Notes: generated from the sequence alone by a model not told the origin. 64,000 bases of DNA from Candidatus Hermodarchaeota archaeon (GCA_048885925.1 JBHLLG010000001.1:35105-99104); one strand, 5' to 3'. Counted from the stretch's first letter, positions 46,475-52,295 are shown. A program made the numbers and translations.

Positions 46475-48289
46475 ATGAAAACAGCAAAAGGTAGAATTTC
46501 AGAAAAGAAATCAGGTAATCGTGGATATAAAAGCTGTTGGGTTTACATTCCAAGTAGTATATCTAAAAATGATTATTTTCCATTTAAGGATAAGGAAGTA
46601 GTCTCAATAGAGTTGAATGGAGATCAATTAATAATTAGTAAAAATTATGATCTTTATCAAATAACGAAAAGATATGGTTTAGATGACGCAACCTTGTCAA
46701 ATTTAGTAGAAAAAAAAGCATTTATTAATAAAGATCTGCCTTTTATTTACTTTGAAGATGAGCTTTTTTCTTATTCTGACACAAATAAAAATTCGAACAA
46801 GATTGCTAATGGACTTTTAAATTTAATTAGTAAGTTAAAATTAAATAACCCAAAAATAGCACTATTACTCCCAAATTGTCCTGATTTTATTTTTTGTTGG
46901 CTTGGTATAGCAAAAACTAGAAGCGTGCTAGTAGCAATAAATTATTTATTGTCAGAAGGTAGTTTGGAGTATATTTTGAAAAAAAGTAATACAGAGATAT
47001 TAATAATTGATTATAATTATCTTCCTAAAATTCAAAAAATTTATACTAAACTAACACAGATAAAGAAAATTATTATTTATCATCCTCCGAGTGATTTTAA
47101 ATTTAAGGATAATTTTATTGATTTTCAAGAGATTTTATTTGATAATGATAAAAATCCTTATATCAATATTCAAAATTTTAATCCATTAGAAATCTGCTAT
47201 ACTTCAGGTGCTACAGGAAAACCTAAGTGTGTTTTGTATAGGAATTATTTTACCTTATCAGGAATAAGTATAGGAAGTGAATTGGAAGATATTGGTTTCA
47301 GTCGAATTTCTCAGAAAATATATTGTTCTTTACCTCTAGCTCACACTTTTACACGTTATTTAGCAATAATCCCTGCATTATATTATAATGGTTCGATAAT
47401 AATAGCTAAAGAATTTAATAAATCAATATTTTGGGATGATATTAATAGATATAAGCCAGATTCCTTTATCTATAACGGTAAATTTTTATTAGCTTTAGTT
47501 AATCAACAACCAAGGAATTCAGATAGAAAACATTCGTTAAAATATGCCTTTGGATTTGGTGCTTTAAAATCAGTATGGGAAGCATTTGAAAGAAGATTCG
47601 GTTTACCAATTTTCGAAGTATGGGCAGTAGTAGAAGGGATAGGAATTACAATGAATACAATAGGTTCTAAAGGAGGCAAAATTGGTTCTATAGGAAAACC
47701 AGTGAAGGGTTATGAGTTAAAAATTGTTGATACCAATGGAAGAGAATTACCTCCAGGAAGAAATAATATTGGTGAAATTGTATCAAGGACAAAGCTTCCT
47801 TTTGAATTAGAATATTACAATTTACAAGAATTAATATCCATGAAAATAACCCAAAACAGATGGGTTCACACTGGTGATTTCGGTTATAAAGATAATGAAG
47901 ATTTTATCTACTATCTAGGTAGACAAATAGATATGATTCTTAGAGGGGATGAAACTTTTTTTTCAACAGATATTGAAAAAATAGCCGATTCACACCCAGG
48001 AGTCGCTGAATGTGCTGCATTTGAAGTATCTATTGAAAATTCAACAAAAAAGGAGATAAAAATATGTGTTGTGGTCAAAGAAGATATGGAATTGAAGTAT
48101 AATGACTTCCATTACTACCTTAAGGAGAATTTGGCATACTTTATGGTCCCAAGGTTTATAGAATTTAAAGAAGAATTACCAAAAAATCTGAATGAATTAG
48201 TTCAAAAATTTATTTTAAAAGAAGAATGGGAAGACAAAAGTTTAAGAAAAAATACTTTTGACACTATTGAGCAAAAATTTTTAGATTAA
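46475..48289 (+). CDS. AbrB/MazE-like N-terminal domain fused to a CaiC-like acyl-CoA ligase domain with degenerate motifs
   Basis: N-terminus YKSCWVYIPSSI...FPFKDKEVVSIELNGDQLIISK; ligase motifs YTSGATGKPK and HTGDFG. Confidence 0.75.
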   Translation: MKTAKGRISEKKSGNRGYKSCWVYIPSSISKNDYFPFKDKEVVSIELNGDQLIISKNYDLYQITKRYGLDDATLSNLVEKKAFINKDLPFIYFEDELFSYSDTNKNSNKIANGLLNLISKLKLNNPKIALLLPNCPDFIFCWLGIAKTRSVLVAINYLLSEGSLEYILKKSNTEILIIDYNYLPKIQKIYTKLTQIKKIIIYHPPSDFKFKDNFIDFQEILFDNDKNPYINIQNFNPLEICYTSGATGKPKCVLYRNYFTLSGISIGSELEDIGFSRISQKIYCSLPLAHTFTRYLAIIPALYYNGSIIIAKEFNKSIFWDDINRYKPDSFIYNGKFLLALVNQQPRNSDRKHSLKYAFGFGALKSVWEAFERRFGLPIFEVWAVVEGIGITMNTIGSKGGKIGSIGKPVKGYELKIVDTNGRELPPGRNNIGEIVSRTKLPFELEYYNLQELISMKITQNRWVHTGDFGYKDNEDFIYYLGRQIDMILRGDETFFSTDIEKIADSHPGVAECAAFEVSIENSTKKEIKICVVVKEDMELKYNDFHYYLKENLAYFMVPRFIEFKEELPKNLNELVQKFILKEEWEDKSLRKNTFDTIEQKFLD

Positions 48290-48327
48290 GGATACAAAAA
48301 ACCACAATAAATATAATTACTATGAGA

Positions 48328-49074
48328 TCAATTTGTTATGCTTTCTATATTGGGGTATAATTCTATCTTTCGACCTTTTTCTTTAAGATAGATTAAATCA
48401 TTCTCTGATAATTTATCAATATGATATTTTATTGTGTTGCGTGATAGGTTTAGAATTCGAGAGATTTTAGAAGAATTAATTCCAGGATTTTTTTGAATAA
48501 TTTCTAAAACTTTTTCAGTTGTCTCTGACTTTGTGGGTAAATTCTTGAAATGTTCAATTGATTCAATAGAGGAAGTAATTGGAAAATATATTGTATATTG
48601 GCCATAGTTTTCTTTTTTTATAATATGGTTCTTCAATAAGACATCTAAATGCCATTGTAATTGTCCTTTCTGTAAATCGCAATTTCGCAATAATTCATTT
48701 TGATGTATTCCAGGATTTTTAAGAATTTCTCTTAATATATTCAAACGATTTTCATTTTCAAATATATCAGTAAGAGTTAAATAAGAACTTCCTTTTTTTA
48801 TAAAGGGTCTTTTTATAATATATCCTCTATACTCTTTTAAAGTAAGTACTTCAAAAACAGTAATTAAAGAAATGATTGTGATTAAAATACAAATAATAAT
48901 TACTTCTATAGAAAAAATTCTTTCACGACCAAATACATCATCTTTGAAAGTTATAACTTGATATAGAATAACCGAGAGTAAGATAAGAGAAAAGATTATC
49001 AGTAAAAATTTCATTCCAAAAATTAAATAAAATTTTTTAACTCCCATTTTGCTCATTAGTTTTTTTATAACCAT
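48328..49074 (-). CDS. Membrane-anchored transcription regulator: two TM helices plus tandem winged-HTH domains
   Basis: Two N-terminal hydrophobic helices; ILKNPGIHQNELLR...QLQWHLDVL and IQKNPGINSSKISRILNLSRNTIKYHIDKL. Confidence 0.85.
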   Translation of the reverse strand: MVIKKLMSKMGVKKFYLIFGMKFLLIIFSLILLSVILYQVITFKDDVFGRERIFSIEVIIICILITIISLITVFEVLTLKEYRGYIIKRPFIKKGSSYLTLTDIFENENRLNILREILKNPGIHQNELLRNCDLQKGQLQWHLDVLLKNHIIKKENYGQYTIYFPITSSIESIEHFKNLPTKSETTEKVLEIIQKNPGINSSKISRILNLSRNTIKYHIDKLSENDLIYLKEKGRKIELYPNIESITN

Positions 49075-49083
49075 TAAATAGTA

Positions 49084-49674
49084 TTATTTTTCAGTTTTAT
49101 TTCTTTTTACCTTTAAAAAAGGAAACATAAAAGGTACATTATCAACATAATCTAAGAATTTATCTCCATATTTAGCTTTTAAGGCATACTCTTCTATCTT
49201 AGCTAATATTATGTAAGCTAAAACTTCGCCAATCCAGATATAAAATATGATGGTATACCCATTAATATTAAATGGATCAAAATTGACAATGGGATACGTT
49301 TGAAATACCACCAAAGTTAATCCAAATGTCATAAGAATGAAGGCCATATATTGAGGATGTCTGACATATTTGTATGGTCCTTTTTGAATTAATTGTTTTC
49401 TATGAATTAATTGATAGATTAATGAGTAGAAAAATAAAATGAATCCAAATATAACAAAATAGATTCCATGAGTATTAACCAAAAACAGAATATCATATTT
49501 TAGAATTCCAGGATTTTGAAAGTAGTAGCCTAAATAAGTTAAAAATGGTACGCTCATTATTCCATGCCAAATTGCCGTACAAGGTACATATTGAAAAATT
49601 GGTACTAAAAACGAAGAAATACTTGTAGAAATAGAAGTAATTTTACTTTTAATCTTCTGCTTATTAGGATTCAT
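49084..49674 (-). CDS. ICMT/PEMT-family membrane methyltransferase
   Basis: LIQKGPYKYVRHPQY, EEYALKAKYGDKFLDY. Confidence 0.85.
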   Translation of the reverse strand: MNPNKQKIKSKITSISTSISSFLVPIFQYVPCTAIWHGIMSVPFLTYLGYYFQNPGILKYDILFLVNTHGIYFVIFGFILFFYSLIYQLIHRKQLIQKGPYKYVRHPQYMAFILMTFGLTLVVFQTYPIVNFDPFNINGYTIIFYIWIGEVLAYIILAKIEEYALKAKYGDKFLDYVDNVPFMFPFLKVKRNKTEK

Positions 49675-49732
49675 TATCGCTATCTTTTACTTTTTAACTC
49701 TCGTTATAAAATAAGAAAAAAATCTATAAATA

Positions 49733-49762
49733 AAGATTTAAGGTGCACTTTTCGAACAATTT
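49733..49762 (-). promoter_or_regulatory. Shared upstream motif, copy 1 (AAGATTTAAGGTGCACTTTTCGAACAATTT on the + strand)
   Basis: 26/30 identical to 51426-51455; about 60 nt upstream of the 49674 start, next to a TATA-like tract. Confidence 0.65.
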
Positions 49763-49763
49763 A

Positions 49764-51371
49764 TTATAGAGGAATAGAAAACTCTGAGGATCCATCATGA
49801 AAGTTTTGATCTATCAATGGTGGTTTCTTCTTCATTACTTTCCTTAATGTAATTAAAGTTGTAATTAGTAATATAATTAAAATTTCGTAGAATATTAAAT
49901 TTGGAATAATATTTTCTTTAGTTATATTTTTAATGGTAATCTCAATATATATAAATGGCCCAACTCCATTTTCGGAGGGTAAAGGTGGCGTTTGGTTGAA
50001 TATATAACTGGTTATGATATACGCTTCATCAATTTCAGAACCAATGAATTTTTCATTAATTAATGTATTCCCCTCATTACTCAGGTTCTGATATACATGC
50101 CAACCCATAGTATCATGAAAAGCAATAGAGAAACCTATTGTATTATTTTGATCTTTTTTAATCTCTAAGGCAAAATTATTTGGAAGTGATTTAATTTTGT
50201 GAACATGAAAGCCATAGTAATGAAGCTTAACTTTATCTTTAATGAGTGGAAAATTAACAGAAGTGTAATTAGTAACACGAGCATCTAGATTTTCAAAACC
50301 ATAGAGGTTGTTCATAAAACCAATCTCATCTAAAGTTAATGCTGTAATCCAATTCAAATATAATTCATTGAATGAGATATCATTACCTGTACTATATAAA
50401 ACATTTTCAATCCCATAAGCTCCATCAGCAGGTTCCATTATTAAATTTCGAAGAACCTCTAATCCATAATGTTCAGCAATATAGAACGCAAACAAATAAG
50501 CACTTCCATAATCAATAGAATTTAACATATTCCAATAGAGAAGAGAATCTCCAGGATGACTAAGAAAGAGTTTTGTCTGTGGACTAAGGTTGTTATATGG
50601 AGTTAAATAATTTGCATAGAAAACTGCATATTCCGCTAAAGCTTCAAGAGTAAAATGAGGTTCATCCATTTCATTGTTAAACCAAATAAGATGATGAAAC
50701 TCATGGGCAATCGTTGGTATCCATGTCTTATAATAGATGTGGAACATCTCGCAGAGGTTAGAATATTCTAACTCTAACTCATTTCTCTGATCATAATAAC
50801 TTATGGGGTTACTTGAAAGTAAAATTATAATTCTTGGATCACCATCTATATCACCTAAAGTTCCATTGGGATGTCCAGCTAAATTAATAATCCTGGGATA
50901 AATTATATTGTCGAATTCATCACAAATATCTTCCGCTTTTTTAATTGCAGCATATTCTCCTATTTCTGCTATACAATAATCTTCCATATATATATAGCAA
51001 TTCTCTCCTACTGAGATTAATGTAGCATTCATTTTATAATATGACCAATCATTAAAGTCCCACATCCAAAAAGCTCGTTGATTGTACTTAATAAAAAAAG
51101 TTTTATTTAGAATTGAATCTTGAACTTTTATGTAAGGTTCATATAGAAAATCAGGTTGAGGAATGATATAATATTGTGAAGTATCATTCATTTTTGGGGA
51201 GATTTTAAAGTTTGTTGGTTCCAATTCTTGGTTTATTTGAGAATTTTGAGAAGATATATTTCTCGTGAAAATACAATTTGAAGTGAAGATACATGAGACC
51301 AAAAAAAAGAGGAGACCTAAATTAACAATATAATGCTTTTTAGAATGCAGTATAGTAGAGTTTAATTTCAT
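49764..51371 (-). CDS. Secreted, C-terminally membrane-anchored zinc metalloprotease (M30/hyicolysin-like)
   Basis: N-terminal signal/TM, GDIDGDPRIIIL, AHEFHHLI...LEALAE (HEXXH+E), DYGSAYLF, C-terminal TM. Confidence 0.8.
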   Translation of the reverse strand: MKLNSTILHSKKHYIVNLGLLFFLVSCIFTSNCIFTRNISSQNSQINQELEPTNFKISPKMNDTSQYYIIPQPDFLYEPYIKVQDSILNKTFFIKYNQRAFWMWDFNDWSYYKMNATLISVGENCYIYMEDYCIAEIGEYAAIKKAEDICDEFDNIIYPRIINLAGHPNGTLGDIDGDPRIIILLSSNPISYYDQRNELELEYSNLCEMFHIYYKTWIPTIAHEFHHLIWFNNEMDEPHFTLEALAEYAVFYANYLTPYNNLSPQTKLFLSHPGDSLLYWNMLNSIDYGSAYLFAFYIAEHYGLEVLRNLIMEPADGAYGIENVLYSTGNDISFNELYLNWITALTLDEIGFMNNLYGFENLDARVTNYTSVNFPLIKDKVKLHYYGFHVHKIKSLPNNFALEIKKDQNNTIGFSIAFHDTMGWHVYQNLSNEGNTLINEKFIGSEIDEAYIITSYIFNQTPPLPSENGVGPFIYIEITIKNITKENIIPNLIFYEILIILLITTLITLRKVMKKKPPLIDQNFHDGSSEFSIPL

Positions 51372-51425
51372 GTTTAATTCGTAGAACTACTTTTTTATAG
51401 CTATTATCTAAAAAAATTTTAATAT

Positions 51426-51455
51426 AAGCTTTAAGGTGCACTTATAGAACATTTT
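51426..51455 (-). promoter_or_regulatory. Shared upstream motif, copy 2 (AAGCTTTAAGGTGCACTTATAGAACATTTT on the + strand)
   Basis: 26/30 identical to 49733-49762; about 55-60 nt upstream of the 51371 start. Confidence 0.65.
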
Positions 51456-51509
51456 AAAAATTCTAAGGTAGTTACAATATTAATAAAAAACATATTATAA
51501 AGAGTTATT

Positions 51510-52295
51510 ATGCCGAAAGAAAAGGTTAAAGATATTGAAATGTATTATGAATTGTCCGGAGAAGGTGAAAATTTACTTCTTATCCATGGTTTAGGTTCAA
51601 GTACACGCGATTGGGAATTCCAAGTTCCTAAATTTTCTCAAAACTATCAAGTTATTACTATTGATCTTCGAGGTCATGGAAAAACAGATAAACCTAAAGG
51701 ACCTTATACAATGGAAATATTTGCTGAAGATATTGCGGAATTACTAAAAAAATTAGGTATAAAATCAATACATGTTTTAGGGATCTCCATAGGAGGAGGT
51801 ATTGCTTTTCAGTTTGCTGTTAATTATCCTGATTTAGTAAAAAGCCTAATAGTCGTAAACGCTGGTATTGAAATACCCATGGATTCATTTAAGATGAAAT
51901 TAGAGGCTTTTAAACGTACATTTATAGTAAAATTAGTAGGAATGAAAAAGATGGGTAAGGTTCTTGCAACTAGATTATTCATTAAACCTGAACAAGAGGA
52001 ATTACGGGAAAAATTAATTGAAAGGTGGTCAGAAAATGATAAAAAAGCTTATCTTTCATCAATGCGGGCCTTAATTGGATGGAGTATCCGTGATAAACTT
52101 GATAAAATTACCTTTCCAACACTAATCATTGGATCAGACGAAGATTATGCACCATCCTCTGTTAAAAAAGAATATACAGCATTACTTCGCAATGCGAGGT
52201 TTATTGAGATCGAAGACGCTAGACATGCTGTTCCATTTGAGAAACCTGAAGAATTTAATGAAATCGTCATGAAATTTTTATTAGAACAATCTTAA
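51510..52295 (+). CDS. Alpha/beta hydrolase (PcaD-like)
   Basis: LLIHGLG, DLRGHG, GISIGG nucleophile elbow, D...H triad. Confidence 0.9.
   Translation: MPKEKVKDIEMYYELSGEGENLLLIHGLGSSTRDWEFQVPKFSQNYQVITIDLRGHGKTDKPKGPYTMEIFAEDIAELLKKLGIKSIHVLGISIGGGIAFQFAVNYPDLVKSLIVVNAGIEIPMDSFKMKLEAFKRTFIVKLVGMKKMGKVLATRLFIKPEQEELREKLIERWSENDKKAYLSSMRALIGWSIRDKLDKITFPTLIIGSDEDYAPSSVKKEYTALLRNARFIEIEDARHAVPFEKPEEFNEIVMKFLLEQS

Follow-up and report, generated by a model that had tools for sequence, protein, structure and literature searches.

ToxR, TcpP and CadC combine an N-terminal winged helix-turn-helix (wHTH) domain of the OmpR/PhoB type with a single transmembrane (TM) helix and a periplasmic sensor domain. 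They are the prototypes of the transmembrane transcription regulators (TTRs), proteins expected to act on promoters from the membrane, of which 1,384 are described in archaea; two TM regions are found in 17% of all TTRs (Demey et al. 2023, PMC10269533). ToxR and TcpP are co-encoded with a membrane partner, ToxS and TcpH respectively (PMC13042144, PMC11323476). ArnR and ArnR1 of Sulfolobus acidocaldarius are membrane-bound one-component regulators with two TM helices, which switch on genes for cell-surface structures via conserved boxes in the promoters of these genes (PMC6396743). Here, we describe a predicted TTR and its candidate operator in a 64,000-nucleotide stretch of DNA (the window; G000:C1:35105-99104) from an Asgard archaeal assembly of 3,897,362 bases (29% G+C, 181 contigs). 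Two near-identical elements in the window, one upstream of a membrane methyltransferase-like/regulator gene pair and the other upstream of a surface protease gene, are likely the operator (an upstream activating or controlling sequence) of the adjacent 248-aa regulator, which would thereby govern a small, autoregulated regulon.

With a predicted TM region and a DNA-binding domain in one polypeptide, the 248-aa protein is by definition a putative TTR (PMC10269533); Asgard archaea and Lokiarchaeota are not named in the text of that survey, whose supplementary tables may list this family. Unlike ToxR, TcpP and CadC, the regulator places a TM hairpin at its N-terminus, ahead of tandem ArsR/MarR-like wHTH domains; it has two TM helices and no outside domain. 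It too has a co-encoded membrane partner, in this case an enzyme-like protein of the ICMT family that is sometimes fused to it. ArnR shares the two TM helices but has the opposite order, its N-terminal HTH being followed by HAMP-like and sensing domains and then by two C-terminal TM helices; it targets pili, whereas the targets here would be surface enzymes, beta-propeller proteins and the regulator's own operon (PMC6396743). The closest parallels on the DNA side are the EarA sites and the ara-box, which lie directly upstream of the TFB-recognition element (BRE) and TATA box and are needed for activation (PMC5512572). The present site has the same geometry, although EarA sites and the ara-box serve soluble factors in other organisms and are unrelated in sequence. 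With released factors of the SREBP/ATF6 type, the likeness extends only to the idea of a membrane-tethered DNA-binding domain; cleavage, a linked site-2-type protease and a release signal were neither looked for nor seen, and release is not required in a cell without a nucleus.

Three genes run head to tail on the minus strand, encoding a 535-aa HExxH protein, a 196-aa ICMT/PEMT-family protein and the 248-aa regulator; 9 nt (49075-49083) separate the ICMT-like stop codon from the regulator start. These genes and their promoter elements are as follows.

51431..51450, minus strand: site B, GTTCTATAAGTGCACCTTAA, predicted operator/upstream activating sequence (UAS) of the protease gene; 79 nt from the ATG; wider conserved block 51420-51453
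51417..51427, minus strand: TATA-like box TTATATTAAAA, directly 3' of site B, at the same spacing as at site A
49764..51371, minus strand: M30-like (lugdulysin/hyicolysin-type) zinc metallopeptidase, 535 aa, with a signal anchor at the N-terminus (18-36) and, C-terminally, a beta-sandwich and a TM anchor (491-509); cargo gene
49738..49757, minus strand: site A, GTTCGAAAAGTGCACCTTAA, predicted operator/UAS of the ICMT-like/regulator operon; 5' end 83 nt from the ATG; wider conserved block 49727-49760
49724..49734, minus strand: TATA-like box TTTATTTATAG, directly 3' of site A, with the last bases of the motif, TTAAAT, at the BRE position
49084..49674, minus strand: membrane methyltransferase-like protein of the ICMT/PEMT family, 196 aa, encoded first in the operon; Pfam matches above cut-offs
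48328..49074, minus strand: predicted transmembrane transcription regulator, 248 aa; open reading frame (ORF) with an N-terminal TM hairpin and two cytoplasmic winged-helix domains (~100-165 and ~180-245)

A previous sequence-only reading of this DNA had pointed to a near-identical 30-mer with an exact 14-bp core about 60 nt upstream of the protease gene and of the closely spaced ICMT-like/regulator pair, followed in both cases by a TATA-like tract on the coding strand, and all of this is confirmed. The two coding-strand 30-mers, AAATTGTTCGAAAAGTGCACCTTAAATCTTTATTTATAG and AAAATGTTCTATAAGTGCACCTTAAAGCTTATATTAAAA, differ at four positions (26/30 identical) and each runs directly into its TATA-like box. 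The exact 14-mer TTTAAGGTGCACTT (plus strand, 49737-49750 and 51430-51443) has only these two copies in the genome, and its near edge lies 62 nt from the ATG of the ICMT-like gene (49674) and 58 nt from that of the HExxH gene (51371). The consensus of the element, TGTTCnAnAAGTGSACCTTAAA, spans ~22 bp and directly abuts the TATA box. Reading it as a palindromic site was considered and rejected, as only GTGCAC is palindromic, this hexamer varies to GTGGAC or GTGTAC, and the full site is asymmetric.

A weight matrix derived from related sites was run over 7.78 million genome positions and ranked site A best (47.9 bits) and site B second (37.5 bits), with all other positions at 12 bits or less. 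The motif is not randomly distributed; it occurs twice and co-occurs with the regulator. Shuffling of the window at up to 2 mismatches, in which 2 matches were seen against 0.91 expected and 24 of 100 shuffles reached 2, is uninformative alone. An Rfam scan of positions 48000-52000 gave no match at either site; a single sub-threshold match inside the regulator gene is taken as chance.

Across genomes, the element is conserved and co-occurs with the regulator. In 19 loci of the same genus, picked by homology to the regulator protein alone with the motif not used in the choice, the motif lies upstream of the regulator on the same strand in 17; of the two exceptions, one is a contig end and one a gene fragment. 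Wider searches employed a degenerate 20-mer allowing at most 1 mismatch, with the reversed pattern as control. The genus set (30 genomes) gave 51 motif matches in 27 genomes against 1 for the control, and the order set (80 genomes) gave 60 against 6, all 60 of them in one Promethearchaeota family (f1). The motif is present in 34 of 60 genomes of this family and in 0/14, 0/1 and 0/4 genomes of the sister families f2, f3 and f4; with that pattern and mismatch limit, it was found in none of the 19 genomes of the three sister families. Within f1 it occurs in 16/17, 14/26, 3/4 and 1/4 genomes of genera g1, g14, g13 and g12 and in 0/9 of the other genera, so that the matches come from four genera of a single family of uncultured Asgard (Loki-type) archaea.

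The distribution of the orthologue is similar. Within the genus set it was detected in 25 of 30 genomes, with the motif at up to 1 mismatch in 24 of these and at 2 mismatches, in the right place, in the remaining one (G040). Two of the five genomes with no detected orthologue also miss the motif (G004 and G020). The 43 genomes of other f1 genera comprise 17 with both motif and orthologue, 16 with neither, 9 with the orthologue only and 1 with the motif only. In 14 of the 17, motif and regulator share a strand, with the motif 660-1340 nt upstream. Seven of the nine orthologue-only genomes were inspected; four have a diverged site (17-40 bits) at the expected place and one locus ends at a contig edge. 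Genome G005 holds a relic of the module (L057, G005:C8:65138-68157), in which the ICMT-like gene and the regulator are deleted and the remaining motif has a conserved G changed to A, while the neighbouring alpha/beta-hydrolase gene, the mutated motif and the usual downstream gene for a 122-aa membrane protein are retained.

Promoter geometry is also fixed. Unique motif sites number 63, a selected sample since they come from loci fetched via the regulator or via the motif. Counted from the motif start, positions 23-30 show a conserved TTTAWAAA across 62 sites, beyond the reach of every search pattern. The sequence 5' of the motif is unconserved between species (~0.1 bit per position), and conservation extends from TGTTC through the TATA box. 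The distance from motif start to ATG is 82-85 nt in 21 of the 29 sites preceding an ICMT-like gene, and in most copies the start codon lies 57-104 nt from the motif, each copy having its TATA box at fixed spacing. The 12 tRNA genes found with aragorn, run without intron handling, are too few for an organism-specific BRE/TATA consensus, and among 20 public runs listed as containing this DNA no RNA run appeared. The distant orthologues of a sister family keep TGTTCnAAAA and CCTTAA plus TATA in their own upstream regions with a different core hexamer (L088:5899, L089:5894, L091, L090, L092). These two-TM, tandem-wHTH proteins are 30-46% identical to the regulator and have no ICMT-like neighbour.

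That the last gene encodes two TM helices plus tandem wHTH domains is borne out by hydropathy, Pfam and an AlphaFold model. The TM helices, 23-41 and 53-71, have Kyte-Doolittle means of 2.78 and 2.96 and enclose an outer loop of ~12 residues; because basic residues precede TM1 (5 K+R) and follow TM2 (6), the predicted topology is N-in/C-in with cytoplasmic DNA-binding domains. PF24266 (5.8e-21) and PF13412 (1.6e-20) each match in two stretches, MarR, HTH_20 and HTH_5 match as well, and a PDB profile search also returned wHTH regulators. No HAMP, sensor or Trans_reg_C domain was found in the Pfam scan. The AlphaFold model (predicted local distance difference test, pLDDT, 69.7) contains a hairpin of helices 12-47 and 53-93 and two wHTH domains in agreement with Pfam; its Foldseek matches are weak, to tandem-winged-helix and MarR/ArsR proteins, and the inter-domain geometry is unreliable (predicted template-modelling score 0.38). 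Across 17 orthologues there is no variation in the recognition helices QKGQLQWHLDVLL and SRNT(I/V)KYHIDKL, while the TM region and loop vary. Such a match between invariant DNA-reading helices and an invariant site, in a protein whose membrane part varies, supports the proposed pairing of regulator and site. In the distant sister-family orthologues the recognition helix of wHTH2 is invariant and that of wHTH1 more variable, a hint as to which domain might read which half-site.

The partner gene encodes a protein with above-threshold matches to PF04140 (30.4 bits, curated cut-off 24) and PF04191 (29 bits, cut-off 25). Its closest structural counterpart is the ICMT of Methanosarcina acetivorans (PDB 4a2n; 194 versus 196 aa here); the match is weak, at only E 0.021, and aligns GPYKYVRHPQY, which contains the RHPxY motif, and the C-terminal EE..L..YGD..Y..V.F.FP, an instance of EE..L..(F/Y)GD..Y. 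GPYKYVRHPQY and EE..L..YGD are invariant in 18 ICMT-like orthologues, and the RHPQY and EE..L..YGD region is presumably what contacts S-adenosylmethionine. An ICMT-like gene lies directly upstream of the regulator in 16 of the 19 homology-chosen loci, and in-frame fusions of the two exist in G016 (431 aa) and G002 (432 aa). Such a fusion agrees with the predicted topology, as the enzyme C-terminus and the regulator N-terminus would both be cytoplasmic, and its existence argues for functional and probably physical coupling of enzyme and regulator. A complex prediction for the methyltransferase and the regulator (alignments A2 and A3; score 0.01, mark 0.32) was uninformative either way. The fusion loci are L025:2013-3305 (minus strand) and G002:C10 (L022); a 430-aa database protein (P0220) has the same domain set, and both G016 and G002 have, just upstream of the fusion, another ICMT-like gene that stands alone.

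From these data, a plausible mode of action can be outlined. The regulator would be held by its N-terminal two-helix hairpin in the membrane, from which the two cytoplasmic winged-helix domains could reach DNA. The site is asymmetric, with TGTTC and GTGSAC centred ~10 bp apart, from which we infer that a single polypeptide places its two wHTH domains on successive major grooves: one would recognise TGTTC and the other GTGSAC, these half-sites being a helical turn apart. Bound next to the BRE and TATA box, the factor would control recruitment of TFB and TBP, both at its own operon, common with the ICMT-like methyltransferase, and at one to three additional promoters, mostly located just upstream, whose genes are interchangeable cargo, here the surface-anchored M30-like protease. 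Both binding of the site by the 248-aa protein itself and its action from the membrane are predictions from domain content, conservation and co-occurrence. As for the input, the circuit had been suggested to sense the envelope, an idea that finds no support; because the outer loop is short and variable, a signal through the membrane or through the methyltransferase partner is the likelier guess. It is conceivable, if doubtful, that the ICMT-like enzyme is itself the sensing half, methylating a lipid or prenylated carboxylate so that the state of the substrate controls the tethered, and in two species fused, DNA-binding tail. If true, the module would be functionally comparable to the membrane-tethered lipid-sensing factors of eukaryotes, driving rapidly exchanged surface proteins.

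A number of observations weigh against this picture or narrow it. The 20-nt pattern selected its own sites, which inflates the information content inside the pattern, and the genomes are kin, which makes the co-occurrence counts descriptive and overstates their independence. One motif each, with no orthologue found, is present in G005 (the relic), G017 (79% complete, before a radical-SAM gene) and G018 (92% complete, before a small membrane-protein gene), and the same holds for G072 of another genus. Conversely, G057 and G095 have an orthologue with no upstream site above 10 bits. The putative targets are not all surface proteins: the radical-SAM enzyme is not one, and the alpha/beta hydrolase may be a target. 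A near-consensus TATA box would also suit a strong promoter under repression, and the genome encodes ~10 TFB paralogues (20 cyclin-repeat matches, 10 open frames of ~300 aa; contigs C2, C3, C9, C15, C24, C44, C74, C79, C106 and C116), which leave room for a dedicated basal factor at the BRE-proximal part of the motif.

The sequence-only reading had favoured an activator; the position of the site directly upstream of both BRE and TATA element agrees with this and is the one ground for it, so that we lean only slightly toward activation over repression. Archaeal activators typically bind just upstream of the BRE (PMC5512572), and TrmBL1 activates from upstream of the BRE/TATA and represses from downstream (PMC4706686). 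The TGTTC...GTGSAC part lies wholly upstream of the BRE position, where an activator would be expected, and the characterised membrane-bound regulators ArnR and ArnR1 are activators (PMC6396743). The main competitor keeps the same protein and site and makes it a repressor, which next to or over the BRE would block TFB and TBP at strong promoters until a membrane- or methyltransferase-linked signal releases it. We regard this as rather unlikely, with several points in its favour: the conserved block passes gaplessly into a BRE and a TATA box near consensus, ArsR/MarR-like folds of the kind matched by the wHTH domains belong mostly to repressors, and repressors that interfere with TFB/TBP are common in archaea (PMC5512572).

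The remaining alternatives detach the site from the neighbouring protein or from regulation altogether. Another reader, either a soluble regulator or a TFB paralogue acting through an extended BRE, would make the wHTH protein a passenger. The ~10 TFB genes, the motif's 3' part at the BRE position and the orthologue-free sites of G017, G018 and G072 speak for it, but the conserved part extends ~15 bp past a BRE, the motif precedes the regulator's own operon in 17 of the 19 homology-chosen loci, its phyletic range follows the orthologue, and no TFB match lies on C1, the contig carrying the window, so that none is linked to it; such a reader is improbable. Much less probable still is that the repeats are recombination sites bounding exchangeable gene cassettes and have no regulatory role. 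Cargo does differ between species and is flanked by direct copies of the element. The nearest relative, G001 (L013), is instructive here: it is without the protease cassette and has a single site whose upstream flank resembles that of site B (47/63 aligned columns identical) and whose downstream flank resembles that of site A (46/63), as would follow from loss or gain of cassettes through recombination between repeated promoter units. However, every copy has its own TATA box at fixed spacing, with a start codon mostly at the distance given above, no recombinase gene was seen in the mapped loci, and recombination between repeated promoters would produce this pattern incidentally. Chance similarity or a recent local promoter duplication, for which only the shuffle frequency could be quoted, can practically be set aside: two exact copies exist with no other site above 12 bits in 3.9 Mb, and the element is conserved in four genera before unrelated genes with diverging flanks. 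The claim of one cis-element common to the operon of a membrane-anchored wHTH factor and to the protease gene has survived, as a prediction, every computational test proposed for it, and regulation by the adjacent protein stays the favoured explanation.

Viewed across species, the invariant core of the predicted module is the ICMT-like/wHTH pair, and the protease is one of several interchangeable cargo genes. The first ORF downstream of the 63 sites is ICMT-like in 29, an LVIVD-repeat protein in 11, radical-SAM/SPASM in 4, the regulator itself in 3, an M30-like protease in 3, an SBBP beta-propeller in 3, a multi-TM protein of ~175 aa in 3, an 83-aa membrane protein in 2 and a 122-aa membrane protein in 1 (the G005 relic); 4 sites, one at a contig end, have no ORF of at least 60 aa within 25-260 nt. 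In the LVIVD, SBBP and protease proteins alike, an N-terminal segment is hydrophobic and a C-terminal TM helix precedes a basic tail. An orthologue of the protease occurs in 5 of the 30 genus genomes, always directly upstream of the operon and with the motif in 4 of 4 evaluable cases, and the same arrangement is found in another genus. The proposal that the factor controls an extracellular protease and a membrane methyltransferase is partly supported: the site precedes both genes, and the protease is a genuine accessory gene.

Identification of the protease relied on profiles and structure. It has no Pfam match, only noise up to E 10, and a single-sequence PDB search was empty. A profile of 32 homologues matches PDB 7bb8, lugdulysin (M30) of Staphylococcus lugdunensis, over ~270 residues (E 9.9e-15), and Foldseek aligns the model (pLDDT 80.5) to 7bb8_A with E 2.7e-14 and a template-modelling score of 0.63. 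H223, E224, H227, E243 and Y288 are invariant in 32 sequences; the HExxH motif, third-ligand Glu and catalytic-site Tyr are common to lugdulysin, unlike which the archaeal protease adds the N-terminal signal anchor, the extra C-terminal beta-sandwich and the C-terminal TM anchor. Its 227 database homologues are all Asgard proteins without names. The label 'Peptidase M6-like' from an Atlas look-up was rejected, as the profile and fold results point to M30.

Site B lies in a 138-nt divergent intergenic region (51372-51509) that the protease gene has in common with an alpha/beta-hydrolase gene.

51510..52295, plus strand: alpha/beta-hydrolase gene (PF00561, 2.2e-33), divergent from site B; possible extra target, not an established part of the module

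An orthologue of this gene, 76-89% identical, is the divergent neighbour at 8 of the 63 sites, with its start codon exactly 44 nt from the motif in 5. Because the site is flanked by two divergent TATA-like tracts, it may control both directions. Loci with this neighbour are L063, L064, L065, L056, L057, L067 and L020.

A second cargo module found under the motif combines a radical-SAM/SPASM enzyme with a membrane peptide of 83-109 aa and a protein of 380-444 aa that gives weak methyltransferase and TPR matches; it may be a peptide-modification unit. It is seen at L078:1965-6260, L032, L038, L046, L039 and L058, and in L078 it continues into the ICMT-like/regulator pair. Two of the sites with no downstream ORF of at least 60 aa (L044:1501-1640 and L055:1501-1700) have the string CATTTCCATTTCCATAT in common ~45-60 nt downstream, which could mark a co-regulated small RNA or small ORF; L055 carries a second, weaker site 123 nt further on.

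From a broader perspective, membrane-bound one-component regulators are a known, widespread class, and no major concept is changed by the present case. New here are the occurrence in Asgard archaea, the exactly defined site and regulon, a partner that is enzyme-like and sometimes fused, and an operator-promoter unit reused before interchangeable cargo. Our literature searches returned no Asgard transcription factor with a described binding site or regulon, nothing on Asgard promoters or regulators of this kind or on operators of archaeal TTRs (HVO_0163 appeared only in an unrelated context), and nothing on ICMT with Asgard archaea or on an ICMT-type enzyme paired or fused with a transcription factor. 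The locus therefore offers a predicted regulator, its exact site, the promoter geometry and a small regulon that can all be defined from sequence alone. It presents an archaeal transmembrane regulator obligately paired, and occasionally fused, with an enzyme-like membrane partner, and one operator apparently reused to place different surface-protein genes under the same control.

The surroundings of the module differ between species. In many of them it is preceded by a motif-free conserved block encoding methylmalonyl-CoA mutase, its B12-binding subunit, a MeaB GTPase and a ferredoxin-nitroreductase (L072:1290-5285, with the same genes in L073, L075, L076, L079, L081, L083 and L087). In the present window, an AMP-binding acyl-CoA ligase gene and two others take that upstream place.

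Finally, the Loki-type lineage has a wider family of membrane-anchored tandem-wHTH factors. Matches to the regulator in the genome analysed here total 8; TM helices are predicted in 3, the regulator itself counted. In a 418-aa paralogue (G000:C70:9107-9667, minus strand), a signal/TM segment is followed by an outside domain (~190 aa), another TM helix and the tandem wHTH seen in the regulator, a topology resembling that of ToxR and CadC; this paralogue is conserved across the order, with orthologues in all 40 genomes searched.

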